Virus record (IMG/VR): IMGVR_UViG_2703718780_000024
Location: 1 to 22,914 of that record
Source of the DNA: a virus
Lineage: Duplodnaviria; Heunggongvirae; Uroviricota; Caudoviricetes
Direction: 5' to 3' (one strand)
Length of the DNA: 22,914 nt
Positions within the stretch are counted from its first letter, which is position 1. The number at the start of each line of letters is the position of its first letter. A program made the translations under genes and the position numbers. Below, piece by piece: positions 1 to 22,914 of the stretch. The notes under the pieces were generated by a model. The model had not been told where the DNA came from and did not search any database. It saw nothing but the letters and a program-made list of their open reading frames with translations.

Positions 1-1236
1 CTATGATAACCGCGCATTCAACATGGCTACCTGTTCGTCGTTCATGTCATCAATCCACATACCGTAAATTTCATACACCATCTGCGCAGTTTCATGCCCC
101 ATTTGGCTGGCTATAAATGCCGGGTTCGCTCCTGCCGTCAACAGCCAGCAGGCAAAAGTATGCCGCGTATGGTACGGATTACGGCGGCGAATACCAGCAC
201 GTTTTACTGCTGCATTCCACCTTGCCCCCAAACTGCTTACCGAGTAATAAGGTTTTTGTTTTCCGTTACACACCCTGGGCATGAAAACAAAATGCAGTTT
301 TTGCTTTTCGGTTCTGCCGTACTCCCGATGATAAAAGGTGATTTCGCTTTTGCGATGATGCCCGGTCAGTTTGTATTGCTCCTTCAGTGCTTCAAGAGCA
401 GGCTGCAGTAGTGTTACCGTCCGGATCCCCGCATTTGTTTTTGGGGGACCGAACATATCCAGTATCGTCAGGTTTCTTCTGACATTCACAACTCCCTTCT
501 CGAAATCCACATCCTCCCACGCCAGAGCAGCCAGTTCCCCGTGACGAAGCCCGGAGTATACGGCAAATTTCCACAAGTTCTGGCTCTGTCCTTTTTCACT
601 TTCCATTAATGCATTGAATTCTGTTTTAGATAACGGGTCAGGCTTTATTCTGTTTCTCTGTAATTTCTTTACTCCTTCAAATGGTTTGGTTGATATAAAT
701 CCCGACTGATACGCAAAACGTAACAACGAACAGAGCAGGGCGATATAGTTATCAACTGTGCGCACGGTTCTTCCTTTTTTGTTGGATCTTGGATTATCCA
801 GGTAAAGCGTTTCTCCATGCAGCAGTTCATTCCGGTAGTTTAAGATATCGCTATAACGAATATGCGATATCGGAGTACTCTCACAAATTATTATCCTGAG
901 TGTTTTTAATTGTGATTTCGTTTTCTTCATTGTGTTTGTTGTTAACTCTGTTTCTTTAATTTTTGTCCAGATATCACAAAGCTCCCCGAACGTTTTTATG
1001 ACCCTCGTTGTCACCATTTTTGCCCCAGTGCTGGACTGGGGAAAACGTCTTAAATACTCAAACTCACCGGAATTGATTTCATGAACTATCAACGCTCTTA
1101 AATTCCCGGCTTTTTTAATGTTACTGTTAGTAACCTCCCAGCCTTTCAATGTTTCCCGACATCGTTTTCCTCGAAACATGAACCAGATGCGAATGTATTT
1201 ACCTCGAATCTCGACACCTGTTGGTAATTTAGACAT
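1..1236 (-). CDS. intR: Phage integrase, tyrosine recombinase family (Rac IntR-like), 411 aa
   Basis: Full-length 411-aa ORF at the prophage edge, directly downstream of an excisionase-like gene. Product resembles phage integrases by recollection, and the length matches Rac IntR. Confidence 0.85.
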   Translation of the reverse strand: MSKLPTGVEIRGKYIRIWFMFRGKRCRETLKGWEVTNSNIKKAGNLRALIVHEINSGEFEYLRRFPQSSTGAKMVTTRVIKTFGELCDIWTKIKETELTTNTMKKTKSQLKTLRIIICESTPISHIRYSDILNYRNELLHGETLYLDNPRSNKKGRTVRTVDNYIALLCSLLRFAYQSGFISTKPFEGVKKLQRNRIKPDPLSKTEFNALMESEKGQSQNLWKFAVYSGLRHGELAALAWEDVDFEKGVVNVRRNLTILDMFGPPKTNAGIRTVTLLQPALEALKEQYKLTGHHRKSEITFYHREYGRTEKQKLHFVFMPRVCNGKQKPYYSVSSLGARWNAAVKRAGIRRRNPYHTRHTFACWLLTAGANPAFIASQMGHETAQMVYEIYGMWIDDMNDEQVAMLNARLS

Positions 1237-1237
1237 A

Positions 1238-1453
1238 TCATGAGTCTTTGATAAACTGATTTATCTTTGGATAGTTATACCAGATAATCCCTCGCTTACT
1301 GTCTGGCTTCCCTAAAGGAGATACTCGTTTGAAGTGGAAGCCTTCCACCCAACAGTTCTGGCGGTATGCTTCAATTTGTCTGGCCCCCAGACCAGTGCGA
1401 AGCATCAGGCCGTATTCAACCATCCACTCTTCATTAAAGATTACTTGTGCCAT
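1238..1453 (-). CDS. Excisionase-like small protein (Xis/YdaQ-like), 71 aa from the internal ATG
   Basis: Small basic ORF immediately upstream of int. Its stop TGA (1238-1240) sits one base from the int start. The six-frame ORF extends to 1477, but the first ATG gives 71 aa. Confidence 0.6.
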
Positions 1454-1552
1454 CGCATCACCTCTGGCAGGCGCCAATGTTAGACTTAAATTGACGCCCG
1501 ATGTTGATTATTAATAATCAGCTATGAAGTTTTAATTTGAATACAATGCAAT

Positions 1553-1741
1553 TCACGAGGACTGAAGTTTCTCGCAATTAAAATTTATCAGTTTTACTTT
1601 CTGCTCTCTGGAAACGCCTGCTTCTTTTTTACCTGAGAGCATTTTTTCGCATTCTGATTTCGTTAGTTTAGATTTTGAATATCTTGTCCAGTTAGTAGGA
1701 GTGCCACCTTCCTTTTCAATAGTGGCGGTAATTTTATACAT
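1553..1741 (-). CDS. Small prophage protein (YdaC-like), 62 aa
   Basis: ATG at 1741 is preceded by GGAGG at about 6 nt spacing. It lies in the leftward early operon between ralR and xis. Confidence 0.5.
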   Translation of the reverse strand: MYKITATIEKEGGTPTNWTRYSKSKLTKSECEKMLSGKKEAGVSREQKVKLINFNCEKLQSS

Positions 1742-1928
1742 GAACACCTCCATTATTATTTCCAGTGGTTCGTTTATTTCATCGTTCGAGTGCTTCTTTT
1801 TCACTTCCACCATAACCGGTTCGGGATTCGCATCCGTTACACTTCGCTCGGTAATATCCTGAAATGGCTTTCACCGTTACTGATGGACAACCACAAAATG
1901 GACATGGTTTAACATTGTCATATCTCAT
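1734..1928 (-). pseudogene. ralR: RalR/Lar-like restriction-alleviation gene with an in-frame TGA at 1779-1781; 49-aa product if translated from 1928
   Basis: Translation from ATG 1928 gives MRYDNVKPCPFCGCPSVTVKAISGYYRAKCNGCESRTGYGGSEKEALER, then TGA. The same frame continues NKRTTGNNNGGVHV to a TAA that overlaps the next gene start. The Cys-rich N-terminus matches RalR as I recall it. Confidence 0.55.
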
Positions 1929-1983
1929 AATTTTTCTCATAAAAATATTTCAAGTTGGCGGTGCATTACACCGCCAGGCTGAA

Positions 1984-2793
1984 TTATTCCTCTGAATTAT
2001 CGATTACACTGTATTCCCCGGTTAATACAGAGGAATCTGCAGGATCGATTGTCAGTGGTTCCTTTTCATCCATTGATACTGCACGCTGGATCTCAATTGA
2101 TACGGGCAGATATTTGAACAGGCGACGAATAGCCGTTTTCTTTGCCATTTCTTCCCAGTGAGTTACCCACGGCCCGTTATTACCAGCTTTACTCTGGCTG
2201 CGCACCAGCTCAATCTGTTTGCGCGTCATAACTTCAAACTGAGTACCTCCGTCTTTCAGTCTTGCGACAGCATAGACGTGGGTAACAGGGGCATCTTCGT
2301 TTTCTCCTGGGCGGTGTATTAACTTTTCATCAAGGCCAAATTCGAAATTAAACTCGTCACCTTCACGGACAACACGGGCTGACAAGCTGGCGATTTGACC
2401 TGAACGGCGAGCCAGATCAATCATGCCGCGATAGCCAATGATTAGCTGAACGTTTTTTTTACCGCTCTTTTCGTTTTTATTACCAAAAGGCAGTAAATAT
2501 GCATGACCGAGGGCGCTACCGGGCTCAAGTCCGAGCTGTGAACACTGTACGATTGCACTGACAAAACTCATAGTGTCACAGTTTCCTAACGCCGGAACTT
2601 TACGAATTTCTGTGGTGGCGATACGGATCATACGTTCAGCCGTCATATGGCGTGGAAGAGCTGCTGCCAGTTGCTCTTTCATTGATGGCTGGTTAATAAA
2701 ACTAATCACGTCGTTATTTTTAATTGCTGCTGGTGCACGGTTTCCCTGAGTTTTTTGCAGATCGGCTTTTGCGATTGGTGGTTGCTTAGTCAT
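1984..2793 (-). CDS. recT: RecT single-strand annealing recombinase, 269 aa
   Basis: Product from the internal ATG begins [29 protein letters not shown] and ends [10 protein letters not shown], near-identical to Rac RecT as recalled. It overlaps the recE stop. Confidence 0.92.
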
Positions 2794-5488
2794 TTGCATA
2801 TTCCTTAGCCCAGCGGGGCAGTGATAACGTCTTAATAGCTGGCCATTCATCGGTATTGAGGCAGTCAGCCAGGGTTCGCAGATTGCGGTGATATTCCAGC
2901 TGACCTGCCAGTTTTGCTTCTTCGCCCATCATGAAAATTTCAACCGGATAACGTCCGCATTCAATAGTTGTGCTGGCAACCAGAAAAACGAAAGTTGGCT
3001 GCACTCCAAACTGTGCTTCATAACCGTCACTGTAGAATGCATCCTGAACGTGATAGCGGTAGTCGTAATAAGCGGTTTTGAATCGTTGAATATCCGCCGT
3101 AGTTTTCACGTCCATGATCCAGTGAAATTCAGGGATAATTTTGTCCGGACGGCACCGACACAAAATTGCTGTTTCAGGATCTTCCCAGTAAATTGATGAT
3201 TCAGCGTGTCCGGCGCTTTCAACAAGCCATTGCCCCAGCGGCAAAGCCATAACGCTCTGATACATGAGTTCAATTTTCCGGCCTTCTTCGGCAGTGATAA
3301 CCGTTTTTCCTGTGCTTGCGCATTCCCTCAGAAACGCTTTCTCTTCTTCTTTTCCGGAGTTTGTCCGGCGGTTAAATTCAGGTGCTACGATAAAGCGGTT
3401 ACTGAATTCTTCCGGCTCAAGTACCCGGCAGTGGAAAGCGGTTCCTAAATCGAGCGTTTTTGTCTTTGTGGTGTCCACGGGGGCATTTTTACGCCACAAA
3501 TACAGTGCCGGAGTATCAGCAATGTCATCGAGCTGAGACTTACTGACACCGGGACCCGCGTGGTAATTCTCATTCGAAATTCCGTAATAAATACCTGGCT
3601 CTATGTCTTCTACGATTACGGGATCTGCGACTTCGCCAGTTTCATCACTGCAATCGCGATGCGGATCGCTGCCAGCATTCTCATTGTGCGGATGTTCAGC
3701 GCCTTCCATTTCCTCCGGATCATTTTCCTTAGCTTCAACCTGACTCTCTTCATCGAATGTTTCCTGGTATGTTGCGTCGCCCATCACCGCGCCACAATCA
3801 GGGCAGTTGCCGCCACCACTCTGACCGCAGGCGGTACAGACTTTTTCCTCTTCCTGTTGCGCTACTGGTTCGGATTGTTTCGTTTCTGGCTCGTCTTGTA
3901 ACGCATTTGGGCTGTTTTGTTCCGCTTTTTGGTCGTTCTGTTCCGTTTCTGACTGGTTCTGGTTCACAGAATCGCAGGTTTCAATCCCCTTCACCCATTT
4001 CGGATCATTCGGATCGCTAATCCCTTCAACAAATTCACCACGTGATGCAGCAAGCAATTTATCGGCGTCAGGCTGGCTGATATTGGCTGCCTGCATAATT
4101 TTGTTTACTTCGTCAGCGGTAACTTTTACCGGCTCCGGTTGTACGGAATCTTCAGCGGTATCCACATTTTGCGGTAAGTCCGTGTATGTTCCGTTTTTGC
4201 GGGCAAGATATTCTTCTTTCGTGATTTCAGCAGCCCCGGCAGCCAGCGCCTTGTCCAGACCAGAAAGTTTGTTTGCGCGACCGTATTTTTCGCCATCCTT
4301 GTCGGTGAAGAGGAAGTAGAACGGCCCCTCACGCTCTACAGATGGTTCGACTTCCACTTTGCATTCGGTTTTTTCGTTGTCCGGAATTGCCGTTTCCACT
4401 GCATCAGTTTCTGGTACTGGCGACGAGAGAGTATCAGTTGCGCTCTGATTTCTTCCTTCATCTTCAAACACGCCCTTTGTAGTCAGGTATTCAGTAATGT
4501 ATTTGTTCAGTGCCACAGGGTCTTTGTGAATGTCGATCGGACGTTCACGGACAAGGCCAAAAATAGTCTGGCGGCTGTAGCGAAGCGCATCAGGTTGTTT
4601 GCGCATTGATGCGGAGATGCGCTTCCAGTCTTCGCGATCTCTGGCGATAACTTCATTTTTAGCCCAGCGAAGGATGCTGCCGTCAATGTTTCCGGCATCC
4701 GCATCACCAGGCCAGAGATAGTAGGCCAGCTCCCTGTCCAGGGTTTTCCATGTCTGCTTGTATTCGCGATGAATGGCGGCAGTTACAGGAGGGATTTTTT
4801 CTGCTGGGTTTTCAGTGTGCTGTCGGTTGGCTTTGGCGCGGGCAAGATCAACAACAGACGTGTATTTTCCAGTCTCTTTGCGCTCTGCGTCCTGCCGTTT
4901 TTTCCAGTTACGTAATTCAGCCTGAATTTCGGGCCATTTGGTACCCGGCTTACATTTGTGTTTAACCCATCCGATAGCGAACAGTTTGCGTTCCGGATAC
5001 ATAGCGTTAATTTCAGGCGTTTTCATCAGTGCTTCAACGATATGCCCGTCAAAGGTAGCCACGTCTTCTTGCAGTAATTCCTGCGCGTCAATCGCCATAT
5101 CAACGGTGATGTTTTCACATGTACCGAACTTAACCAGGACCGCGTTCTGTACTTCAAGGGACAGCTTGTCAAAATTGACGTTAATAGGATCGGATTCTGG
5201 TTCGACCGGAATAAAGGAAGCGGATTCCTCATCCCAGCGGTTTTCCTGCATATATTCGGTATCCCAGGAGTCGATAGCAGGGCGGGGCATGCCGGGTTTA
5301 TCTTCGCAGACAAGAAATTTATAAGCGCAGTCCTGAGCAGCAGGATATTGCTCCAGGAATTGCCAGGTAAATTTGGCACGGGCGCGGCGTTCATCACCGG
5401 CTTCAATGGCAGTGGCTACAGCAACTGCGCCCTCTTCTTTTATTGCCTGTTCGTCCGGAATGGCGGCGCAAATAAAGACTTTACTCAT
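2786..5488 (-). CDS. recE: RecE exodeoxyribonuclease VIII, 900 aa
   Basis: Large ORF immediately upstream of and overlapping recT. The C-terminal region ([24 protein letters not shown] ... [10 protein letters not shown]) matches the RecE nuclease domain as recalled. Confidence 0.85.
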
Positions 5489-5581
5489 TTTGTTTTAACC
5501 TCATTACAGATTTAAGGGTGAACAAATCCCTGCCATTGCTGGCATATAAAAATGAAACCGGATATTAATTACGGTGCTGTT

Positions 5582-5773
5582 TTAAAGTCCTGCCGGTATT
5601 TCGTTATTATTAGTGTGAGTAGTTTTATCTACCGGATAACAGTTACCGGGAATTTTTTGTTCTGCTGCTGCAGCCATGCATTCTTTCATTGAACCGTATA
5701 AGCCAGTCACCAGCTCAAGAGATTCGCCGGAAACAAGATAAACTGTCAGAACGAGTGCAAATGTTGTATTCAT
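5582..5773 (-). CDS. Small protein with hydrophobic N-terminus (signal peptide or TM helix), 63 aa
   Basis: ATG overlaps the upstream gene stop (ATGA), with AAGGA about 9 nt upstream. The N-terminus MNTTFALVLTVYLVSG is hydrophobic. Confidence 0.45.
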   Translation of the reverse strand: MNTTFALVLTVYLVSGESLELVTGLYGSMKECMAAAAEQKIPGNCYPVDKTTHTNNNEIPAGL

Positions 5774-5958
5774 TGTTTATATCCTTTTTGCAGCAGGTCC
5801 AGACGAGCCAGCATTGAAGGAATGCATACTTCATTTAACAGGTCCTGCTCGAGTTTTCTCTGCTTAATGGCGTCTTCAATAAATGTTTTGTCTCCAGTGA
5901 TAACGCCAATTTCGAAACGAAGTTCAGACGTGCTGGCATTACATGATAACTTTTCCAT
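5770..5958 (-). CDS. Hypothetical early-left-operon protein, 62 aa from the internal ATG
   Basis: Internal ATG at 5958 is preceded by GAGGA at about 7 nt. The longer six-frame ORF to 6063 has no comparable RBS. Confidence 0.45.
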   Translation of the reverse strand: MEKLSCNASTSELRFEIGVITGDKTFIEDAIKQRKLEQDLLNEVCIPSMLARLDLLQKGYKQ

Positions 5959-6413
5959 TATCGCGTCCTCAACAATGAATTTTGTGATGCGGTGCCTAGT
6001 GCCTCCAGGTGACGTTAACCAGTTAACAATTAACGCCGGATACAGAGAATCCACCCATAACACTGTTTTTGGTTTTAACTGTTCCGCGTGCGCTGAGCCG
6101 CATTCACCGCATCACAAAATTCACTTTTAAAAAAGGGCGGCAGAGCAGTCACGGAGTAAAACTGATACCGCCAAATGTCACCAGAATATTGATAACAGAG
6201 GGCGTTGTAGCGGGGTTGTCACTTAAGCGTATGGTCAACCTGACAACCCGGTGTCCTCAACTGGGGAAGGAATAACCCCGCCATACTTACCGCCGCGCCA
6301 TTTCGCGGATTGCCACAACCGGAAGCGCACGTTCGAAGAAATCTAACGACAAGCCTTCTAAGGGAAAGAGCTTCGCCGTACGCTTTCGCGTTGTGTGCCT
6401 GCTTTTAACCACG

Positions 6414-6602
6414 TCAGGCGAGGTGGTTTCCGTCGTTCCCCAACGACAGGAAATCTGTATAATCTGGATATCCCCAACAACAGGAAGGTGTTTTATATGG
6501 TGGTTCAAAAGAATTGTTCAGGTACTGGTAAGCCTGCGGACAGGTCGGACATTCCGAATACCAGGAAACATATACCTGAGAAAAACATTCGACCAAAACC
6601 AT
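6414..6602 (-). CDS. Cys-rich small protein (possible zinc-binding, YdaE-like), 62 aa
   Basis: ATG at 6602 is preceded by AAGGAG at about 7 nt. The product has 8 Cys, including an ECPTCP motif and a CC pair. Confidence 0.5.
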   Translation of the reverse strand: MVLVECFSQVYVSWYSECPTCPQAYQYLNNSFEPPYKTPSCCWGYPDYTDFLSLGNDGNHLA

Positions 6603-6661
6603 CTCCAGCTCCTTCAGAGGAGAGGGGGAACAGCAACAATCAAACAAGCAGGTGATGATAT

Positions 6662-7108
6662 ATGGACCGGGATGATATTCTTGACAGGGTTTTATATGGT
6701 TATTTTCTTGAACAACTATTCTCTGTAGCGACTGGTCGTCTCGATAAACTTCTCTCAGTGGTGAGTATTATCCTCGGTTCATCTGTCATTGGTGGATTTA
6801 TTCCTGAAGTTTCTGGAGTTCTCATTGTTGTGATAGCAACCGTTCAAACGATTTACGGATTCGGACAAAAGTCAGGTAACGCAATGAGAAAATCCGCAGA
6901 ATATCTGCAGCTTTATGATGATGCAGAAAAATATTCCGATTCGGAATTGAAAATGCAGTTAAAGCTCCTGGAAAAAACAGATGATAATATTTGGTCGTCG
7001 CTTAAAGATATCGCAATCTTAAAAACCCAGATCAAAATAGGAATCTCCGTAGAACAACAAGAGAAACTGTCTGCAAAATCCAAATTGATGCGATTCCTTT
7101 GTGGTTAG
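6662..7108 (+). CDS. Membrane protein, possible superinfection-exclusion SieB-like, 148 aa
   Basis: It lies on the opposite strand inside the leftward early region, in the position sieB occupies in lambda and Rac. The N-terminal half is hydrophobic and the C-terminal half is charged. Confidence 0.4.
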   Translation: MDRDDILDRVLYGYFLEQLFSVATGRLDKLLSVVSIILGSSVIGGFIPEVSGVLIVVIATVQTIYGFGQKSGNAMRKSAEYLQLYDDAEKYSDSELKMQLKLLEKTDDNIWSSLKDIAILKTQIKIGISVEQQEKLSAKSKLMRFLCG

Positions 7109-7223
7109 GAATACCCAGATTGTTAAAGAGCATGCCGGATGCTTACCCGTGTCCGGCGAACGTATTCCACTTCGCCTGTGGAGAACTCTTTAATTACTAA
7201 CCTTCATCAGTCAGAGTTTCTTG

Positions 7224-7358
7224 CTAACCAGCGACGCGCGCCAGCTTCCGTTTTAAACGTTTTGCTTCTGGTAACGTCATCGCGGTGAACGTTCCATCCT
7301 GGTTGGGGAACACGCCGCACACCAGGGATTCGTTGTTGCCGAGGTCGATTTTTTGCAT
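7224..7358 (-). CDS. Small protein (YdaG-like), 44 aa
   Basis: ORF not in the supplied track (under 60 aa); translation MQKIDLGNNESLVCGVFPNQDGTFTAMTLPEAKRLKRKLARVAG. It sits directly downstream of the repressor-proximal small gene, and its length matches Rac YdaG. Confidence 0.45.
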   Translation of the reverse strand: MQKIDLGNNESLVCGVFPNQDGTFTAMTLPEAKRLKRKLARVAG

Positions 7359-7365
7359 TTTGCGA

Positions 7366-7503
7366 ATCTCACATCTTGTTGCTACGTATAGCGACTTCTG
7401 CCTGCCAGAGATCCCAGTCGTTGCTGCGTAAAGCCTGCACAGCCTGGTTGTAAGTGATACCGCAACAATCCATCAAATACTGAACTACTTCGTAATGCAC
7501 CAT
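7366..7503 (-). CDS. Small protein (YdaF-like), 45 aa
   Basis: ORF not in the supplied track; translation MVHYEVVQYLMDCCGITYNQAVQALRSNDWDLWQAEVAIRSNKM. AAGGGGA RBS about 9 nt upstream. Confidence 0.45.
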
Positions 7504-7671
7504 CTTATCTATCCCCTTAACGCCGGGTGGCGGAACTAACTGCTGCACTGCAAAATTTGAATCCCGCCGTCATGTTCATACGCCTCGGGCTGGCTACTTA
7601 ACCCCTGACCACTGCCTGGTAACTCGAAGTATTGCCCGGCGTTCTGTGGGGCGGGGTGGGTTGGTAGGTAT

Positions 7672-7715
7672 ATAATGTACTTTGTGTTCATCATTGTAAA
7701 GTACTTTAAGTACAT
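7672..7715 (-). promoter_or_regulatory. Candidate leftward early promoter (pL-like) with overlapping operator half-sites
   Basis: On the minus strand: -35 TTTACA (7695-7700), 17-nt spacer, -10 CATTAT (7672-7677). ATGTACT/AGTACAT half-sites and a 10-bp palindrome AAAGTACTTT (7698-7707) overlap it. Confidence 0.4.
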
Positions 7716-7790
7716 TTTATGTATAAAAAAATGAGACGGGATAAAGTGAAGCACAAACCCGGAGGGGGACGCTACCGGATTTATGCTGGT

Positions 7791-8210
7791 TTAAGAGGCT
7801 TTTTGTTTTTTCTTTCGTGCTAACTCTTCGTAAATTGCATTGTACTTCTGTTTTTTCTCCTCAAGAGTTTTTAAAAGTTCATCTGTCTCACTGTCAGGGA
7901 GCTCGTCCAGAAGGTCAATGATGATTTTTTGTCTTGGATTTAACTCCTGATAGAAACGTATCTGTCCACTTTCTTCTGTATCCTCTCCCAAAAGATAGGT
8001 TGGTGTTGTTCCAATGAGTGTTGCTAATTCCCTTAATTTCTCTCGGCGAGGAATTGTTTCACCATTAAACCATTTGCTAACCGCTTTTGGTGTTAATTTC
8101 ATTCGACGGGCAATTTCTGCCTGCCTTCCATGTTGTTCATAACCAGCGTTTTCACAGGCTAGCGCAAGCCTACTGGCGAACTCTTTACGCGCTTTATCTT
8201 CATGAACCAT
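7791..8210 (-). CDS. Prophage repressor, XRE-family HTH (RacR/CI-like), 139 aa
   Basis: HTH segment QAEIARRMKLTPKAVSKWFNGETIP. The gene is divergent from a Cro-like gene and flanked by operator-like repeats. Confidence 0.8.
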   Translation of the reverse strand: MVHEDKARKEFASRLALACENAGYEQHGRQAEIARRMKLTPKAVSKWFNGETIPRREKLRELATLIGTTPTYLLGEDTEESGQIRFYQELNPRQKIIIDLLDELPDSETDELLKTLEEKKQKYNAIYEELARKKKQKAS

Positions 8211-8230
8211 AAGTTCAATGATATTCGCTC

Positions 8231-8266
8231 TTGAATGTACTGTCAGTTCTGTTATAGCATGTACTC
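8231..8266. promoter_or_regulatory. Divergent promoter/operator region between the repressor and Cro-like genes
   Basis: ATGTACT occurs at 8235-8241 and 8259-8265 in the 79-bp intergenic region. TTGAAT (8231-8236) and TATAGC (8253-8258) are candidate -35/-10 elements for rightward transcription. Confidence 0.4.
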
Positions 8267-8289
8267 AAAGTTCACATTGTGAGGGTGAT

Positions 8290-8544
8290 ATGAACCAGAA
8301 AACACTTGAAGATGTAATCAAAACTGTTCGCGTTTCTGTTGTGGCCGACGTTTGTGGTGTCAGCCAAAGAGCAATCTACAAATGGATGGATAACGGTAAA
8401 TTGCCTCGCACAGAATATACCGGCGAAACAAATTACGCTGAAAAAATCGCTCATGCATCAAACGGATTATTTTCTGCCGATGCAATTTTAACTATTGGCA
8501 GAAATAAAACTACTACGAAAAAGCTGATGGGAGTTGATTCATGA
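8290..8544 (+). CDS. Cro/YdaS-like HTH regulator, 84 aa from the internal ATG
   Basis: HTH-like segment VADVCGVSQRAIYKWMDNGKLP. GAGGG precedes ATG 8290. The stop overlaps the next gene start (ATGA). Confidence 0.7.
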   Translation: MNQKTLEDVIKTVRVSVVADVCGVSQRAIYKWMDNGKLPRTEYTGETNYAEKIAHASNGLFSADAILTIGRNKTTTKKLMGVDS

Positions 8545-8963
8545 AAATCAAGCATGAGCACATCGAATCAGTGTTGTTAGCCCTGGCAGCCGAAAAAGGG
8601 CAGGCGTGGGTCGCTAACGCAATTACTGAAGAATATCTGCGCCAGGGGGGCGGCGAATTGCCCCTGGTACCAGGCAAGGACTGGAACAATCAGCAGAATA
8701 TCTATCATCGTTGGTTGAAAGGTGAAACGAATGCGCAAAGGGAAAAAATTCAGAAACTGATCCCTGCGGTTCTGGCAATTCTTCCTCGCGAGCTGCGTCA
8801 CCGACTCTGCATCTTCGATACCCTGGAACGCCGTGCATTACTGGCGGCACAGGATGCACTGAGTACGGCAATTGATGCGCATGATGATGCAGTCCAGGCC
8901 GTTTACCGTAAAGCACATTTCAGCGGCGGCGGTTCTCCTAGCGATTCTGTCGTAGTGCATTGA
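8541..8963 (+). CDS. ydaT: YdaT-like protein (CII-position regulator/toxin-like), 140 aa
   Basis: It is translationally coupled to the Cro-like gene. The 140-aa length and position match Rac YdaT. Confidence 0.6.
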   Translation: MKIKHEHIESVLLALAAEKGQAWVANAITEEYLRQGGGELPLVPGKDWNNQQNIYHRWLKGETNAQREKIQKLIPAVLAILPRELRHRLCIFDTLERRALLAAQDALSTAIDAHDDAVQAVYRKAHFSGGGSPSDSVVVH

Positions 8964-9007
8964 TTGAAATTAATCGTACCGAACTGTTTTGTTCGGTATC
9001 AGTTAAA

Positions 9008-9426
9008 TGTAACGCTGCGAGCGTTACAAGGTGAAAACAAATGGCTTCAAACTGGATAAAGCTCGAAGTTATTACGCCGGATAAGCCGGAAATATTCAGG
9101 CTTGCTGAGATTCTGAATATTGATCCAGATGCCGCATTAGGGAAAGTCATTCGCTTCTGGGCATGGGCGGATCAACAAATGATAGACGGTAACGCAGAGT
9201 GTAACGCTCGCGGCGTTACAAAAAGTGCAATAGATCGCATCACTTTTATGGCTGGTTTTGCTGATGCGTTAATTCAGGTTGGATGGCTGGTCGAAACTAA
9301 TGGTGTGTTGTCGCTTCCTAACTTTGAGCGCCATAACGGGAAAAGCTCTAAAAAACGGGCGGTTACAAACGAGAGAGTAACAAAAATACGAGAACTGAAA
9401 CGAAAAGGTAACGCTGCCAGCGTTAC
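9008..9426. repeat. Iteron-like palindromic repeats (GTAACGC ... GCGTTAC), candidate replication origin or operator sites
   Basis: Three inverted repeats at 9008-9028, 9200-9220 and 9408-9426, plus degenerate half-sites at 9189-9195 and 9360-9367. One lies just upstream of the O-like gene and two lie inside it. Confidence 0.5.
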
Positions 9427-17254: not shown

Positions 17255-17563
17255 GTTGCATTGCTGTGTTGTTTGGGATTTGTTGCACCATTCTGGCGTT
17301 GGTATATCTAGTTCGTTGTTCATTTTGTTAATTGTACAACAGGCAGACAACAGAGAGCTTTTAGCCTAGTTAGCTTACGAAATTAAACAACTAAGATTAT
17401 CGGCGGGGAGTGGTCACCGCTACTCTTTGGCTAGGAGACTTCAACGCAACCGCACACAACCAGCTTCGGCGGGTTTTGTTTTTTCCTGGCATTCTGGTTT
17501 ACAATTTGCGTGCTAGCTTGAACAACTGGCATCTGCTGCACTGCGCCATCGAGAGATTGAGAA

Positions 17564-18163
17564 ATGGCGCATATACAACTGGTCAAACAAACTTCTTCTG
17601 GTTTACTTCTCCCGGCGACGCCGGAGAGTTGCGATTTTCTGCATCAAATCAAAATAGGTGAGTGGATACACGCAGATTTTAAGCGTGTGCGTAACTACGC
17701 ATTCCACAAGCGTTTTTTCAAACTCCTGCAACTGGGATTCGATTACTGGACTCCGGTCGGTGGGGCGATCACGCCTCGCGAACGAGAACTGCTGTCTGGT
17801 TTCGTTGATTACCTGTGCGAATCAGTTGGTCGGGAACACACGCCAGCCCTGAGTGATGCCGCAGAGCAATACCTTAACACCGTTGCGACTCGTAGAACCC
17901 GGGATACGGCGTTGCTAAAGTCGTTTGAGGCTTTCCGCGAGTGGGTAACCATTCAGGCCGGATTTTACACCGAGCATATTTATCCGGACGGTAGCCGTGG
18001 GCGTCGGGCAAAATCCATCGCTTTTGCGAATATGGACGAAGTCGAGTTTCAGCAGGTTTATAAATCTGTACTGAATGTGCTGTGGAACTGGATTCTGTTC
18101 CGTAAATTCTCCTCTCAGGAGGAAGTTGAAAATGTGGCCGCACAACTACTGGAGTTTGCGTAA
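17564..18163 (+). CDS. nin-region phage protein (DUF1367/YdfU-like), 199 aa
   Basis: It lies immediately upstream of the YbcO-like gene with a 1-nt overlap (TAATG). The family assignment is by recollection. Confidence 0.5.
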   Translation: MAHIQLVKQTSSGLLLPATPESCDFLHQIKIGEWIHADFKRVRNYAFHKRFFKLLQLGFDYWTPVGGAITPRERELLSGFVDYLCESVGREHTPALSDAAEQYLNTVATRRTRDTALLKSFEAFREWVTIQAGFYTEHIYPDGSRGRRAKSIAFANMDEVEFQQVYKSVLNVLWNWILFRKFSSQEEVENVAAQLLEFA

Positions 18164-18453
18164 TGGTGAATTTACGTAAAGCGGCTAAAGGCCAGATATG
18201 CCAGATCAGAATCCCTGGCTACTGCAATCACAATCCCGAAACCTCTGTGCTGGCGCATTACAGGCTGGCGGGAACGTGCGGAACAGCGATAAAGCCACAC
18301 GATATGCAGGCAGCGATTGCCTGTAACTCATGCCACGATTTAATCGACGGGAGAGTAAAAACCAGCGATTACACCAAAGAAGAATTGCGCCTGATGCATG
18401 CAGAAGGTGTTTTTCGCACACAAGAGATCTGGAGAAAGGACGGTTATTTATGA
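18163..18453 (+). CDS. ybcO: YbcO-like putative nuclease (DUF1364), 96 aa
   Basis: 96 aa with a conserved Cys/His pattern (CQIRIPGYCNHNPETSVLAH ... CNSCHD), closely resembling DLP12 YbcO as recalled. Confidence 0.75.
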   Translation: MVNLRKAAKGQICQIRIPGYCNHNPETSVLAHYRLAGTCGTAIKPHDMQAAIACNSCHDLIDGRVKTSDYTKEELRLMHAEGVFRTQEIWRKDGYL

Positions 18454-19004
18454 TTTACCCAACGAACACAGGAAAAAGCGGAGAGCACCTTCGTCTCACC
18501 ACGCTGGAAAGTGTCTGGATTCAGGGGAAACTACGTATGTGGGGGCGCTGGTCGTATATTGGCGGCGGTAAGACGGGAAATATGTTCAACCAGTTGCTGA
18601 CCTCTAAAAAGCTGACAAAAACGGCAATTAACGAGGCGCTCCGGAGGATGAAAAAAGCAGGTCTGGACAAACCTAAACTTGAGGCTTTTTTGCGGGATAT
18701 GATCAACGGCAAGCAAAAAAGCTGGCTGGTGCATTGTACCGATTCAGAGGCGTTAATAATCGACAGGGTTATTGGTGAAGTACTGGCAGGTTATCCCGGG
18801 CTGCTCAATGTTCTGAGTCAGCGTTATGTGGGGCGGGGGATGACTAAGCGCAAAATGGCTGAACTGCTGAATGATGCACATCCGGAATGGAGTTTAAGAA
18901 CCTGTGAAAGACGCATTGAGCATTGGCTAAAGGTGGCAGAATTTATTTTGTACAAACCAATGGTTATGGCTTTTGGTATAGAGAAAAAAGTTATTGCTTT
19001 TTGA
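18450..19004 (+). CDS. Putative late-gene antiterminator Q (non-lambda Q family), 184 aa
   Basis: The call rests on position: it is the last gene before the tRNA cluster, coupled by ATGA overlap to the YbcO-like gene. No zinc-finger motif is visible, so the family is uncertain. Confidence 0.45.
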   Translation: MIYPTNTGKSGEHLRLTTLESVWIQGKLRMWGRWSYIGGGKTGNMFNQLLTSKKLTKTAINEALRRMKKAGLDKPKLEAFLRDMINGKQKSWLVHCTDSEALIIDRVIGEVLAGYPGLLNVLSQRYVGRGMTKRKMAELLNDAHPEWSLRTCERRIEHWLKVAEFILYKPMVMAFGIEKKVIAF

Positions 19005-19080
19005 CGTAAAAACTGCTTCAATTCCGGTAAGCTTCGCAAAGCTGTATCGCGAGGCGAACCAAACGCATGAACTTTACCAG

Positions 19081-19105
19081 AACCCGCCATTGAGCGGGTT
19101 TTTTA
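19081..19105 (+). terminator. Rho-independent terminator (possible tR'-like)
   Basis: Stem CCCGC / GCGGG with loop CATTGA, followed by TTTTTT. Confidence 0.55.
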
Positions 19106-19143
19106 TTGCGGAATTAATTACGGACCGTTATTATTCTGCTCCC

Positions 19144-19219
19144 GGCCCTTTAGCTCAGTGGTGAGAGCGAGCGACTCATAATCGCCAGGTCGCTGGTTCA
19201 AATCCAGCAAGGGCCACCA
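19144..19219 (+). tRNA. tRNA with CAU anticodon, most likely tRNA-Ile2 (ileX/ileZ-like); tRNA-Met not excluded
   Basis: 76-nt cloverleaf with acceptor GGCCCTT/AAGGGCC, T-loop TTCAAAT, anticodon loop CTCATAA and encoded CCA. It closely resembles E. coli ileX as recalled. Confidence 0.85.
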
Positions 19220-19319
19220 TCACAAACCGCCATTAGCTTATCAGGAAGAGCAGACGACACCATAACAGGGTTGTTGGTGCGGGGGCGGGTCCCCGATGGC
19301 GGTCCATTATCGGTATTCT

Positions 19320-19396
19320 GCGTTGTTAGCTCAGCCGGACAGAGCAATTGCCTTCTAAGCAATCGGTCAGTGGTTCGACTCCACTACAACGCGCCA
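19320..19396 (+). tRNA. tRNA-Arg (anticodon UCU)
   Basis: 77-nt cloverleaf with acceptor GCGTTGT/ACAACGC, anticodon loop CTTCTAA, T-loop TTCGACT and encoded CCA. Confidence 0.85.
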
Positions 19397-19409
19397 CACT
19401 TATTTTCCA

Positions 19410-19433
19410 GGCTCGCTTCGGCGGGCCTTTTTT
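19410..19433 (+). terminator. Rho-independent terminator after the tRNA cluster
   Basis: Stem GGCTCGC / GCGGGCC with loop TTCG, followed by TTTTTT. Confidence 0.6.
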
Positions 19434-19565
19434 GTATCTGCGCCACGCCCGGCGCATATCAACCACAGAGCCTTTCGGGGGTGAGCTTACGGAGTGGTCA
19501 GTGTGACTTTCTCTGTGGGCAGATCGCTCCCGGGCGTTGGCTCACCCACCCAAAGGAACGTCACG

Positions 19566-19997
19566 ATGTTTGGAATCTTCAAAAAGAAAACCCGCAGAGC
19601 GGCAGCGGAAATTAAAAAGTTTGAGAAACGCGATCTGGCACAGGCGGTGATTAACGCTGCATACCTGGTGGCCTATGCAGATGGTGAATGCGAGGCATCC
19701 GAGAAAGCGAAGATCGAACAGGTCTTACGTAATCAGCCTGCGTTGTCTGCGTTTACCTCGGAAATTAATGCGATTAGCGCAACTATTATCGGTCAGCTGG
19801 ATACCAATTTTAAAATTGGTCGTCGTGCCGCGTTACGCGAGATTGAGGATGTGAAACACGATACGCGTGAAGCGGAAGATGTGCTGGATGTGGCGGTGGC
19901 CATTGCGGAGGCAGACGGCGAAATTGAGCCGGAAGAGCGCAAGGTGCTGGAAGAGATTGCCGGTGTTCTGGGTCTTCGTCTGGAGAATCACCTGTGA
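19566..19997 (+). CDS. TerB-like domain protein, 143 aa from ATG 19566
   Basis: Two ADGE-containing segments (AYADGECEASEKAKIEQVL and AEADGEIEPEERKVLEEIAGVLGL) typical of the TerB fold. AAGGA RBS. Confidence 0.55.
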   Translation: MFGIFKKKTRRAAAEIKKFEKRDLAQAVINAAYLVAYADGECEASEKAKIEQVLRNQPALSAFTSEINAISATIIGQLDTNFKIGRRAALREIEDVKHDTREAEDVLDVAVAIAEADGEIEPEERKVLEEIAGVLGLRLENHL

Positions 19998-20161
19998 CGG
20001 TAAAACTGCGCCTGGCTGTGGCTGCACTCCTGCTGTTTCTGGTGGTGATGGTGGATTTCACCAGCAGAATCATGTCGGTGCTGGCGGATGGGGTGCTGGT
20101 CTGCGGCATTGTGGTATTGCTGTGGCCGGTGATAAAAAGAAACAGCCTGCATAATGCTTGA
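19994..20161 (+). CDS. Possible small membrane protein, 55 aa, GTG start overlapping the TerB-like stop
   Basis: Translation VTVKLRLAVAALLLFLVVMVDFTSRIMSVLADGVLVCGIVVLLWPVIKRNSLHNA, followed by a T-run. No ATG start. Confidence 0.3.
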   Translation: MTVKLRLAVAALLLFLVVMVDFTSRIMSVLADGVLVCGIVVLLWPVIKRNSLHNA

Positions 20162-20474
20162 TTTTTTTGTTTGCTGTTTATTAAAAACACTTCTGCATGG
20201 TGAATCCCCCTGTGCGGAGGGGCGATCAGCAACCAGGTATATGGGATAATCGCGGATTCAGGTGCTGATACTGAATTCACCGGGAGGCACCCGGCACCAT
20301 GCTTTGCCACAAAAGTGTTGTTTCTGTTTTTCTCAAACTATCATCGTTATCCCTTTATTTCCGGCTGCGCATGGCGTGGCCTTTTTTTACGACCAGCCAC
20401 TGGCAGATGGCCATCCTGTAATTTGATTCCGGTTCCGGCTTTTTAACTCTGTTCCTGTACACGGGAGAAATTCG

Positions 20475-22412
20475 ATGTCGATTAAACATTATGATGTTGT
20501 CAGGGCGGCGTCGCCGTCAGACCTTGCGGAAAAGCTGACACAAAAACTGAAGGAGGGGTGGCAGCCATTTGGCAGCCCGGTGGCCATCACGCCTTATACT
20601 CTGATGCAGGCCATTGCGGCGGAAGGTGATGTCACCACACCTGTGTTGGTGAAGCCGTCGGATGGAGAAGGCACAGTAATCAGCGCCACCAGAGACCCGG
20701 AGTATTACTTTGTTGTGGTTCTGGCGGGGCAGTCAAACAGCATGGCATATGGTGAAGGCCTTCCGCTGCCGGAGACATATGACCGTCCGGACCCGCGCAT
20801 TAAGCAGCTGGCGCGTCGCAGTACGGTGACACCGGGCGGTGTCGCCTGTAAATATAACGACATCATTCCGGCGGACCATTGTCTGCATGATGTGCAGGAC
20901 ATGAGCCGCCTTAACCATCCGAAAGCGGACCTGTCAAAGGGGCAGTACGGAACCGTGGGGCAAGGGCTGCATATCGCCAAAAAATTGCTGCCGTTTATAC
21001 CGGCGAATGCGGGCATTCTGCTGGTTCCGTGCTGTCGTGGTGGTTCAGCGTTCACCACCGGAGCCGATGGCACATACAGTGACGCGAGTGGTGCCTCGGA
21101 GAATTCAACCCGCTGGGGTGTGGACAAGCCGCTGTATAAGGACCTTATCGGTCGAACAAAAGCAGCACTGAAGAAGAATCCGAAAAATGTGCTGTTTGCC
21201 GTGGTGTGGATGCAGGGGGAATTTGATTTTGGCGGTACGCCGGCAAATCACGCAGCACAGTTTGGTGCGCTGGTTGATAAATTCCGTGCAGACCTGGCGG
21301 ATATGGCAGGTCAGTGCGTCGGTGGCTCTGCTGGCGGTGTTCCCTGGATATGTGGAGATACGACGTATTTCTGGAAGCAGAAGAACGAATCCACGTACCA
21401 GACGGTGTACGGCAGCTATAAAAACAAAACGGAAAAGAATATCCATTTCGTACCGTTCATGACCGATGAGAACGGGGTGAATGTGCCGACGAACAAACCG
21501 GAAGAAGACCCGGACATTCCGGGTATCGGATATTACGGTTCGAAATGGCGTGACAGCTCAGCCACCTGGACGTCACAGGACAGGGCGAGCCATTTCAGCG
21601 CCTGGGCACGCCGTGGGATTATTTCCGACCGTCTGGCAACGGCGATTTTGCGCCATGCGGGAAGAGTGGCGCTAAACGCGGGGGCATCATCGACAGTATC
21701 AGAGGTGCGCCCTTCATCGCCTTCCGGTGCAGAAGCCACAGGCGTCACAACACTGCTCTCTTACCTTGCCAGCGAGTCAGAGGGAAGCCTGAAAGTACAG
21801 GGATGGTCAGCCAGTGGCGGCAGGGCAGAAGTGGTCAGCGATGCGGAGGGAACCGGAGGTAAGGCAGTGAAGCTGACCAAGGAGGCCGGTAAAAGCAGCT
21901 GGGTGCTGGAGTACGCCGCGGGCAACGGTGCGGCTCTGTTACAGAAAGGGGGGCAGATTCGCTGCCGCTTTAAGGTTTCGGGAGCGCTGGCTGCGAACCA
22001 GTATGTTATGGCGTTTTACTGGCCGGTCTCTTCACTGCCACAGGGCGTTGCCCTGACCGGAGACGGGGGGAATAACCTGCTGGCAGCGTTCTACATCCAG
22101 ACAGATGCAAAAGACCTGAATGTGATGTACCACAATGCGAAAGTGGCGACAAACAACCTGAAACTGGGAACCTTTGGCGCATTTGATAACGAATGGCATA
22201 CGCTGGCTTTCCGCTTTGCCGGGAATAACAGCCTTCAGGTGACGCCGGTTATTGATGGTCAGGATGGCACACCGTTCACGCTGACGCAGTCACCGGTCAG
22301 TGCATTTGCGGCGGATAAACTGCATGTGACAGACATTACCAGGAATGCGACTTACCCGGTACTGATAGACAGCATTGCGGTGGAAGTGAACAGCACAGAC
22401 ACTGCGGCATGA
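20475..22412 (+). CDS. nanS-p: Prophage-encoded NanS-p-type sialate O-acetylesterase (N-terminal DUF1737, SGNH/SASA esterase core, C-terminal lectin-like domain), 645 aa
   Basis: 645 aa with N-terminus MSIKHYDVVRAAS and a GQSN esterase motif (VVVLAGQSNSMAYGEG). Architecture and length match the esterases found downstream of stx in EHEC prophages. Confidence 0.8.
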   Translation: MSIKHYDVVRAASPSDLAEKLTQKLKEGWQPFGSPVAITPYTLMQAIAAEGDVTTPVLVKPSDGEGTVISATRDPEYYFVVVLAGQSNSMAYGEGLPLPETYDRPDPRIKQLARRSTVTPGGVACKYNDIIPADHCLHDVQDMSRLNHPKADLSKGQYGTVGQGLHIAKKLLPFIPANAGILLVPCCRGGSAFTTGADGTYSDASGASENSTRWGVDKPLYKDLIGRTKAALKKNPKNVLFAVVWMQGEFDFGGTPANHAAQFGALVDKFRADLADMAGQCVGGSAGGVPWICGDTTYFWKQKNESTYQTVYGSYKNKTEKNIHFVPFMTDENGVNVPTNKPEEDPDIPGIGYYGSKWRDSSATWTSQDRASHFSAWARRGIISDRLATAILRHAGRVALNAGASSTVSEVRPSSPSGAEATGVTTLLSYLASESEGSLKVQGWSASGGRAEVVSDAEGTGGKAVKLTKEAGKSSWVLEYAAGNGAALLQKGGQIRCRFKVSGALAANQYVMAFYWPVSSLPQGVALTGDGGNNLLAAFYIQTDAKDLNVMYHNAKVATNNLKLGTFGAFDNEWHTLAFRFAGNNSLQVTPVIDGQDGTPFTLTQSPVSAFAADKLHVTDITRNATYPVLIDSIAVEVNSTDTAA

Positions 22413-22547
22413 TAAAAAAAACCGCCAGCGACAGGAATGGACGCTGGCGGTGGTGATACCTATGGAGAAAAAATAAAGGAACGATACTTTCGTACTCTGG
22501 TTTTTAATGAAAACAGTTCTTATTGTCAACAATAACGGAAAGAAATT

Positions 22548-22727
22548 ATGACATTTCTGAACCAGTTAATGCTGTACTTCTGTACGGTGGTCTGTGTGCT
22601 GTATCTCCTTTCGGGTGGGTACAGGGCAGTGCGCGATTGCTGGCGCAGGCAGATTGACAAAAGGGCCGCTGAGAAAATCAGCGCCGGTCAGTCAGCCGGA
22701 AGCAAACCCGAAGAGCCGCTCATTTAG
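22548..22727 (+). CDS. Small hydrophobic-N-terminus protein, 59 aa
   Basis: ORF not in the supplied track; translation MTFLNQLMLYFCTVVCVLYLLSGGYRAVRDC... GGAAAG precedes the ATG. Confidence 0.35.
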   Translation: MTFLNQLMLYFCTVVCVLYLLSGGYRAVRDCWRRQIDKRAAEKISAGQSAGSKPEEPLI

Positions 22728-22767
22728 CGGCAACTTTCTTAATCACACCTTTCGACGAGAAAATCCC

Positions 22768-22914
22768 ATGTCAGAAATTACATCCCTGGTCACTGCTGAA
22801 GCAGTGAAGGAAGTCCTGCGCTCTGAAGAAGTCCGGAGCGCACTGAAACAGAAACTTCGCCATAACCTGGAAGCGCGTCTTGATGCAGAAGTGGATGCCA
22901 TTCTGGATGAACTG
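22768..22914 (+). CDS. Partial CDS (5' end only; continues past the window)
   Basis: ATG at 22768 with an open frame to the window end; translation MSEITSLVTAEAVKEVLRSEEVRSALKQKL... Confidence 0.35.
   Translation, partial: MSEITSLVTAEAVKEVLRSEEVRSALKQKLRHNLEARLDAEVDAILDEL

Follow-up and report, generated by a model that had tools for sequence, protein, structure and literature searches.

The DNA stretch of 22,914 nucleotides analysed here (IMG/VR record IMGVR_UViG_2703718780_000024, positions 1 to 22,914; its full length is called the window) covers the left 46% of a lambdoid prophage of 49.4 kb, which has 26-bp direct repeats 49.4 kb apart at its ends. Very probably this prophage is a recombinant variant of the rac-like element CP-933R/Sp10 already described in enterohaemorrhagic Escherichia coli (EHEC), inserted at the Rac site in ttcA. 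CP-933R of strain EDL933 is its closest relative, with 98.0% identity over 1-4069 and 99.9% over 7226-20302, and both CP-933R and Sp10 of strain Sakai have been called "rac-like prophages" integrated in ttcA (PMC4632033). Seven RefSeq genomes already contain exactly this sequence in annotated form; the element is a variant of a known prophage type, and its mosaicism is real but ordinary.

A megablast search of 5,426 complete E. coli genomes registered the 22.9 kb window at 100% identity, full-length and colinear, in seven of them, including O157:H7 MB41-1, O103:H2 PV16-126, 2013C-4991 and four recent human isolates, while in EDL933 and other common strains of O157:H7 no more than about 75% of it is covered. 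The element adjoins ttcA in every one of the seven carriers. In one of them, NZ_CM147701.1, where the 49.4 kb element occupies 4304647-4354049, the window starts at the intR stop codon right beside ttcA, and a perfect 26-bp core, TTGTTCAGGTTGTATTGTTCTTTCTT, lies 75-100 bp to the left of window base 1 and again 49.4 kb rightward; the same 26-mer is found at both ends of Rac in K-12 MG1655. The prophage is integrated at the Rac attachment site, at the 3′ end of ttcA. Beyond the right edge of the window, this carrier encodes a class II holin, lysozyme, Rz, a lambda-type terminase, portal, head and tail proteins and tail fibres, followed by three DUF1076 proteins and then by uspF. The first 13 kb of this right part show 99.2-99.3% identity over 99% of their length to ten Stx1a-converting phages. 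The three DUF1076 genes stand in tandem just inside attR, at the right prophage end and outside the window; we read their products as NleG-family type III effectors, and Sp10 presumably has DUF1076 genes just inside attR likewise.

The origin of separate parts was established by segmental blastn against K-12 Rac, CP-933R, Rac-SA53, 666R9, 933W, 2851, Stx1_9793 and JLK-2012, complemented by per-gene tblastn. Four modules were distinguished in this way (Table 1), and the mosaic has at least four junctions, not one. A preliminary description of this DNA had presented it as a Rac-like early and replication arm fused to a Shiga toxin (Stx)-phage-like late arm. The core of this idea stands, but the switch to Stx-phage-like DNA lies only downstream of Q, the element is a mosaic with multiple junctions, and the immunity and kil genes of K-12 Rac are replaced. 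Alignment with K-12 Rac and Stx prophages, proposed there as a check, did reveal homology for both arms, though the Q module turned out not to be of Stx-phage type. The near-identity of RecT to its Rac counterpart was confirmed along the whole protein. The gene order, given as int/xis/ralR/recET/ydaS-T-V, is indeed Rac-like with collinear ydaT and ydaV, but ydaS and racR are absent.

The functional state of this prophage deserves separate consideration. PGAP flags two pseudogenes in the whole element, both within the window (the frameshifted DUF4014 gene and a small gene fragment), and further decay was found in ralR (W50*), in the ead-like gene (Y54*) and in argN, so that the two in-frame stops mentioned in the preliminary description underestimate the damage. 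All of it is restricted to accessory genes. The genes for int, xis, replication, Q, lysis, terminase, portal, head, tail and fibres are uninterrupted over 49.4 kb, and the large genes are intact, as had been stated. Translational coupling of many adjacent genes was also borne out: among 27 same-strand neighbour pairs seven overlap by 1-8 nt (ATGA/TAATG/GTGA) and two more are 1 nt apart. "Apparently intact" is therefore a fair characteristic only as an in silico statement about the essential modules, and it has to be set against a repressor devoid of peptidase domain and the behaviour of Sp10. According to Asadulghani et al. (PMC2669165), the Sp10 repressor also has no peptidase domain and mitomycin C does not induce this prophage; excision takes place spontaneously, and the element is transferred to K-12 with low efficiency, integrating at Rac attR, but no particles were seen from K-12 lysogens. 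Judged by analogy with Sp10, phage function of the window prophage is likely to be limited.

One can go further and assume that the element, like Rac of K-12, is cryptic and functionally dead and has been maintained solely because of the cargo it carries (NleG effectors, tciAB, the methyltransferase island, tRNAs). Five decay marks in accessory genes, a repressor without peptidase domain and the properties of Sp10, which has the same early region, all speak in favor of this possibility, and it should be taken seriously. Nevertheless, we find it rather doubtful: no essential module is interrupted, both att sites (attL and attR) are perfect, Sp10 retains spontaneous excision and transferability to K-12, complete phage genomes of Rac-family relatives have been deposited (the vB_EcoS-6xx series), and Stx1a prophages have a structural arm 99.3% identical to the one found here.

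The position of Q decides how the right half should be read. It had been placed at the beginning of a Q-tRNA-nanS-p arm of Stx-phage type, which is correct for the tRNAs and for everything from nanS-p onward, whereas Q itself is a Rac-family gene. The segment 17515-19102 with DUF1367, YbcO and Q shows nucleotide identity of 87% to vB_EcoS-666R9 and 83% to Rac-SA53, and the products of Q and its two upstream genes are 81-95% identical to those of 666R9. Relatives of Q were found by tblastn in 40 of 50,697 phage records, none of which is an Stx phage; they belong to Rac-family E. coli phages (69-84% identity) and then to phages of Klebsiella, Salmonella and others. There is no tblastn match between this Q and that of 933W, and identity to Q of 2851 is only 23%; the assumption that it is an Stx-phage allele was rejected on the basis of these comparisons with 933W, 2851 and the whole phage collection. 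By its sequence relationships, the entire DUF1367-YbcO-Q module is thus assigned to the Rac family. Pfam recognises DUF1133 in Q (8.7e-106) and also Phage_antitermQ (33.7 bits, the cut-off being 26), and a match to solved Q21 (PDB 6P18/6JNX; E 3.7e-4, residues 13-181) suggests a distant relationship with this antiterminator. Identity to 666R9 stops at 19102 and identity to 933W begins at 19104, which places the junction between Rac-type and Stx-type DNA at ~19103, in the T-tract of a terminator-like hairpin that may represent tR′ of the late promoter.

These data make it very improbable that the element arose as a clean two-part fusion, in which an early and replication arm of K-12 Rac type was joined to an Stx-phage arm starting with Q. 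The gene order Q-tRNA-(slot)-nanS-p-lysis does follow the Stx-phage layout, and for the tRNAs and nanS-p homology to their Stx-phage counterparts is genuine; however, Q with its two upstream genes lies on the Rac side, it is absent from all Stx phages of the collection, and at least four junctions are present instead of one. That the mosaic is an artefact of chimeric joining between repeat-sharing lambdoid prophages is hardly conceivable: EHEC genomes do carry many near-identical lambdoid segments (the number of places per E. coli genome with a megablast match to the window has a median of 2 and a maximum of 17), but the sequence is 100% identical and colinear in seven independently assembled complete genomes of different serotypes (O157:H7 and O103:H2 among them).

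Mosaic architecture of the recombinant CP-933R/Sp10-type prophage would be explained most economically by repeated exchanges between the numerous lambdoid prophages co-resident in EHEC, through recombination of homologous or illegitimate type at conserved linkers between modules. Modules would in this case stay internally co-adapted: int and att fit ttcA, the repressor is kept with its own Cro, and the O-like initiator with the 24-nt repeats at its gene. Similarly, Q would retain 100 bp directly downstream, where a promoter and a terminator-like hairpin are expected, with the junction falling after the hairpin. During the lytic cycle Q is supposed to antiterminate at pR′, allowing transcription to read through the tRNAs, tciAB, nanS-p, lysis and morphogenesis genes. 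In a lysogenic cell the early operons would be kept off by the repressor, which has a helix-turn-helix (HTH) domain only, without a peptidase domain, and is predicted not to be inactivated by RecA-stimulated self-cleavage.

Several observations weigh against this picture. Scanning the region downstream of Q for promoters gave no convincing sigma-70 match for pR′, and qut was not identified there; the hairpin at 19081-19107 is not among the sites returned by the terminator scan. The portal gene of CP-933R is flagged as frameshifted in one EDL933 assembly, which means that relatives can be defective though looking complete. Finally, the direction and order of recombination events are unreadable from the few comparators, and the modules that look swapped in the window could be ancestral, CP-933R being the derived form.

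At the left end, features typical for the Rac-like group (IntR/XisR, RecE/RecT and RalR/RalA) are all present, though RecE is chimeric and RalR truncated. The breakpoint in recE was mapped by blastn to 4064-4069: the portion 2786-4069, encoding ~428 C-terminal amino acids, is of Rac type, while 4070-5488, encoding ~470 N-terminal residues, is of the type found in PPompW/mEp460-like phages. The NCBIfam exoVIII model matches residues 246-900 of this protein below the model cut-off, and because RecE is chimeric its PGAP label is merely "PD-(D/E)XK nuclease-like". The shortened ralR stands beside fully conserved RalA, and the same ralR allele is present in CP-933R and phage 666R9.

Over the segment 4070-7225, phages of the mEp460 and PPompW types show 88-93% identity to the window. 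DUF1482, DicB and DicF constitute a Qin-type module for inhibition of cell division that replaces racC-ydaE-kilR of Rac. An inverted repeat of 24 nt (5971-5994 / 6105-6128) is located between dicB and DicF. The 148-aa protein further to the right (hyp148) has a hydrophobic core of ~40 residues with two probable transmembrane (TM) helices according to its hydropathy, and its gene has the position and orientation of sieB; it is possibly an exclusion or abortive-infection protein.

In the adjacent immunity region, the repressor and the Cro-like protein are the same pair as in CP-933R and phage 666R9. Neither of them, nor DicB, DUF1482 or hyp148, has a tblastn match in K-12 Rac; conversely, the RacR/YdaS immunity system of K-12 Rac as well as KilR and SieB are absent from the window, and the corresponding regions are unmatched by blastn. 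The element is predicted to be heteroimmune to K-12 Rac. Replication proteins are much closer: YdaT, YdaV (DnaC-like) and YdaW have 94%, 96% and 95% identity to the Rac proteins, respectively, and DUF1627 (ydaW) is full-length in the window. In the O-like protein only the C-terminal 47% is YdaU-like, at 79% identity. Three palindromic 24-nt repeats, spaced by ~200 bp (at 9009, 9201 and 9408), occur at the start of or inside its gene, the two best copies having the form GTAACGC-N5-GCGTTACAAAAA; together (9009-9431) they are candidates for an origin or for initiator-binding sites. Among the small nin-region open reading frames (ORFs) that follow, both halves of the split ead-like gene match phrog_660 and are annotated as two ORFs. 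At the frameshifted DUF4014 gene, the segment 12161-12385 shows 91% identity to a left-arm segment of 933W (3313-3538), which it matches in the opposite orientation.

Table 1. Modules, genes and RNA features of the window, with the segments that have no counterpart in K-12 Rac
Feature	Position	Strand	Remarks
Module: Rac core	1-4069		int, xis, ralR/RalA, recT, recE C-terminal part
Module: PPompW/mEp460-like	4070-7225		RecE N-terminus, DicF-DicB-DUF1482, 2-TM protein
Module: CP-933R-type	7226-19102		non-Rac immunity, Rac-type replication, nin ORFs, low-GC island, DUF1367-YbcO-Q
Module: Stx-phage-type late DNA	19104 onward		ileZ-(argN remnant)-argO, tciAB, nanS-p, DUF1378/DUF826
No K-12 Rac counterpart	4065-5973		RecE N-terminus, DUF1482, DicB
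No K-12 Rac counterpart	6141-7225		148-aa two-TM protein at sieB position
No K-12 Rac counterpart	7667-8534		HTH-only repressor and Cro-like protein
No K-12 Rac counterpart	8962-9455		N-terminus of O-like initiator
intR	1-1236	-	99% identity to K-12 Rac IntR; Pfam Arm-DNA-bind_2 and Phage_integrase
xisR	1238-1453	-	100% identity to K-12 Rac XisR
DUF1187 (rcbA/ydaC homologue)	1553-1741	-	100% identity to K-12 protein
RalA antitoxin small RNA (sRNA)	1557-1735	+	Rfam 225 bits, gathering score 170
ralR	1779-1928	-	shortened from 64 to 49 aa by nonsense codon W50* (vs K-12 RalR)
recT	1984-2793	-	99% identity to RecT of K-12 Rac along the entire 269 aa
recE, chimeric	2786-5488	-	900 aa; overlaps recT by 8 nt
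DUF1482	5582-5773	-	Pfam 2.8e-19
dicB	5770-5958	-	Pfam DicB 7e-39
DicF sRNA	6135-6186	-	Rfam 77 bits
148-aa protein (hyp148)	6662-7108	+	phrog_6315, function unknown; no Pfam match
DUF1391, Rac-like	7224-7358		
hyp59, Rac-like	7369-7548		
Repressor	7791-8210	-	HTH_3 only, without S24 peptidase domain (Pfam)
Cro-like HTH protein	8290-8544	+	immunity pair with repressor
Replication module	8541-11804	+	ydaT, O-like initiator, ydaV, DUF1627 (ydaW), DUF977 (lygF)
O-like initiator	9041-9829	+	phrog_2509, replication initiation
Small nin-region ORFs	11910-13133	+	two decayed
DUF4014 gene	12155-12372	+	frameshifted (PGAP flag)
ead-like gene	12648-13133	+	split by in-frame stop 12807-12809; Y54* vs phage vB_EcoS-666R9
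C5 DNA methyltransferase (Dcm)	13565-14716	+	Pfam; convergent with two-gene operon
Methyltransf_35 protein (PF20553)	14684-15673	-	downstream of GHKL gene, 1-nt overlap
GHKL/MORC-like ATPase	15673-17064	-	first gene of operon
DUF1367 (irsA)-YbcO-Q (DUF1133, 184 aa)	17564-19004	+	translationally overlapped
Hairpin and T-run, terminator-like	19081-19107	+	read by eye; ~80 bp after Q stop codon
ileZ (CAU anticodon)	19144-19219	+	ARAGORN; PGAP tRNA-Ile
argN remnant, decayed	~19229-19305	+	not called by ARAGORN (two tRNAs only)
argO (UCU)	19320-19396	+	ARAGORN, intact
tciA (TerB family) and tciB (DUF3927 small membrane protein)	19566-20161	+	Pfam; 4-nt overlap
Intergenic RNA region, STnc100	20166-20338	+	Rfam 105 bits; tciB-nanS-p spacer
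nanS-p sialate O-acetylesterase	20475-22412	+	Stx-phage-type late gene
DUF1378	22548-22727	+	
DUF826	22768 onward	+	cut by window end

The late arm is of Stx-phage type from ~19104, immediately after the Q module, and is free of toxin genes. Its tRNA block (19104-19444) is 86-87% identical to that of the Stx2 phages 933W and 2851. Alignment with these two phages leaves the acceptor and D arms of the argN remnant recognisable, its anticodon arm being scrambled. The T stem of argO differs from that in 933W and 2851 by a compensatory base-pair change from C-G to G-C. The interval 19445-20176 corresponds to the slot of stxAB in 933W and is occupied by the tciA-tciB moron, whose nucleotide sequence is 90% identical to that of the same two genes in JLK-2012, an O55:H7 phage without stx; StxA2 and StxB2 of 933W gave no tblastn match in the whole prophage. 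From 20462-20482 to 22914 (nanS-p, DUF1378 and DUF826) identity reaches 98.0% with Stx1a phage Stx1_9793, 97% with Stx2c phage 2851 and 93% with 933W; Pfam matches in this region are DUF1737, SASA and DUF6645.

The spacer between tciB and nanS-p was suspected from an ACAACAC motif to encode the anti-sRNA AgvB1, reported for Sp10 by Tree et al. 2014 (PMC4104026). This candidate was rejected, as the terminator hairpin of CP-933R and the CACAACA-bearing 5′ region are missing here. In a four-way alignment the AgvB/AsxR-type gene, represented by AgvB1 in CP-933R and by AsxR in 933W, is absent from the spacer; the gap corresponds to ~74 nt of CP-933R and coincides with the point (20302) where identity to this prophage ends. 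The spacer of JLK-2012 lacks the anti-sRNA gene as well.

The low-GC island differs from the rest of the window in base composition (GC of 0.35 over 13401-17300 against 0.45-0.54 in other segments). Direct repeats flanking it as insertion scars were searched for and none were found. It is present in 173 of the 5,426 E. coli genomes, always as a single chromosomal copy with at least 99% identity. Only Dcm was matched by PADLOC, with generic methyltransferase models of type II, Druantia and DISARM systems. The GHKL ATPase and its Methyltransf_35 partner have no PADLOC model, no function in PHROG and no solved relative detectable by sequence, the PDB profile search with the GHKL protein giving only a weak match to MORC3; TerB and hyp148 have no PADLOC model either. 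A neighbourhood census of 80 loci from many bacterial phyla and one archaeon revealed strong linkage: the Methyltransf_35 gene directly follows the GHKL gene in 78 loci, a C5 methylase is present within 5 kb in 68, mostly just upstream and on the same strand, and a Vsr homologue in 35.

Both partners were also compared by their structural models. The AlphaFold model of the Methyltransf_35 protein (predicted local distance difference test, pLDDT, 88) matches only class I S-adenosylmethionine (SAM) methyltransferases, and the idea of a misnamed restriction endonuclease was rejected for this reason. For the GHKL protein the model combines a GHKL fold with a transducer fold, Foldseek matches being Hsp90, SMCHD1 and MORC2. 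Its ATPase site comprises the invariant residues N38 and D75 and the stretch G106-G111, and residues resembling a SAM pocket in the Methyltransf_35 partner are G41-G44, E66 and D109. A nuclease domain was looked for in its C-terminal half and not found, the model consisting of ATPase-plus-transducer modules. Neither Pfam nor the structure models reveal a nuclease domain or fold in either of the two proteins. Iyer et al. 2008 (PMC2292703) predicted restriction-modification neighbourhoods of paraMORC type, where the gene of a GHKL+S5 ATPase is accompanied by a nuclease gene and by a DNA methylase gene, the latter frequently together with Vsr. The linkage to a C5 methylase and, in part of the loci, to Vsr fits these neighbourhoods and makes the island a candidate of this type, with no nuclease found in either partner; another GHKL duplet linked to C5 methylases offers a parallel case (PMC8011034). 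No experimental work on the GHKL/Methyltransf_35 pair was found in the literature. Tentatively, the cassette may be regarded as an uncharacterised, widespread restriction- or defence-type system that might protect the EHEC lysogen by means of an effector other than a recognisable nuclease. It is the sole part of this prophage that might repay experiments.

Since lambdoid mosaicism in EHEC and the rac-like prophages Sp10/CP-933R are well documented, the useful outcome of this analysis is a corrected map. Assignment of Q to the Rac-family side bears on prediction of late-gene and moron expression; the stx slot is occupied by tciAB rather than by toxin genes, and the variant is devoid of the AgvB anti-sRNA known from Sp10. 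A right arm shared at 99% with Stx1a phages provides long homology for recombination, which could move stx or effector cargo between prophages.

Comparison with K-12 Rac gives an alternation of matched and unmatched segments. By blastn, identity is 96.2% over 1-4064, 79% over 5974-6140, 97% over 7226-7666, 92.5% over 8535-8961 and 91.8% over 9456-11054, leaving ~39% of the first 11 kb without nucleotide match. The last of these segments ends where the known deletion cuts ydaW of K-12. Both elements have the ttcA site, the 26-bp core, RalA and the collinear order int-xis-ralR-recT-recE ... ydaT-(O-like)-ydaV-ydaW, but K-12 Rac has lost everything between ydaW and Rz, and this part is kept in the window. 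The racR/ydaS, kilR and sieB genes and the N-termini of RecE and YdaU of K-12 Rac have no homologous equivalents here, and the nonsense codon in ralR is a feature of the window.

Similarity to CP-933R goes much further. Identical protein accessions were found for IntR, XisR, RecT, the repressor, the Cro-like protein, YdaT, the O-like protein, YdaV and YdaW, for the island methyltransferase and GHKL ATPase, for DUF1367-YbcO-Q, TerB and DUF3927, and the integration site ttcA is the same. The difference within 4070-7225 consists in the K-12-like recE, racC, ydaE, kilR and sieB of CP-933R, in place of which the window has the chimeric recE, DicF/DicB/DUF1482 and the 2-TM protein. Everything from 20303 rightward is also different: nanS-p is only 70% identical at the nucleotide level, and downstream CP-933R has an HK97-like head module, while the window's prophage has lambda-type heads and tails.

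Phage 666R9 shares with the window positions 1-4069 (98%), 7226-11902 (97%, with the same immunity pair) and DUF1367-YbcO-Q (87%), and Rac-SA53 has the same irsA-ybcO-q order. Downstream of Q these two carry other morons (LT-II, pertussis-like toxin, trkG) and different lysis and morphogenesis genes, without tRNAs or nanS-p. The opposite relation holds for the Stx phages: they differ in stx genes, in the Q family, in having an intact argN, and in all genes for integration, recombination, immunity and replication, but 933W, 2851 and Stx1a phages are alike with the window prophage in the tRNA block (86-87%) and in nanS-p/DUF1378/DUF826 (93-98%), and Stx1a phages share with it lysis and lambda-type morphogenesis genes at 99.3% identity.

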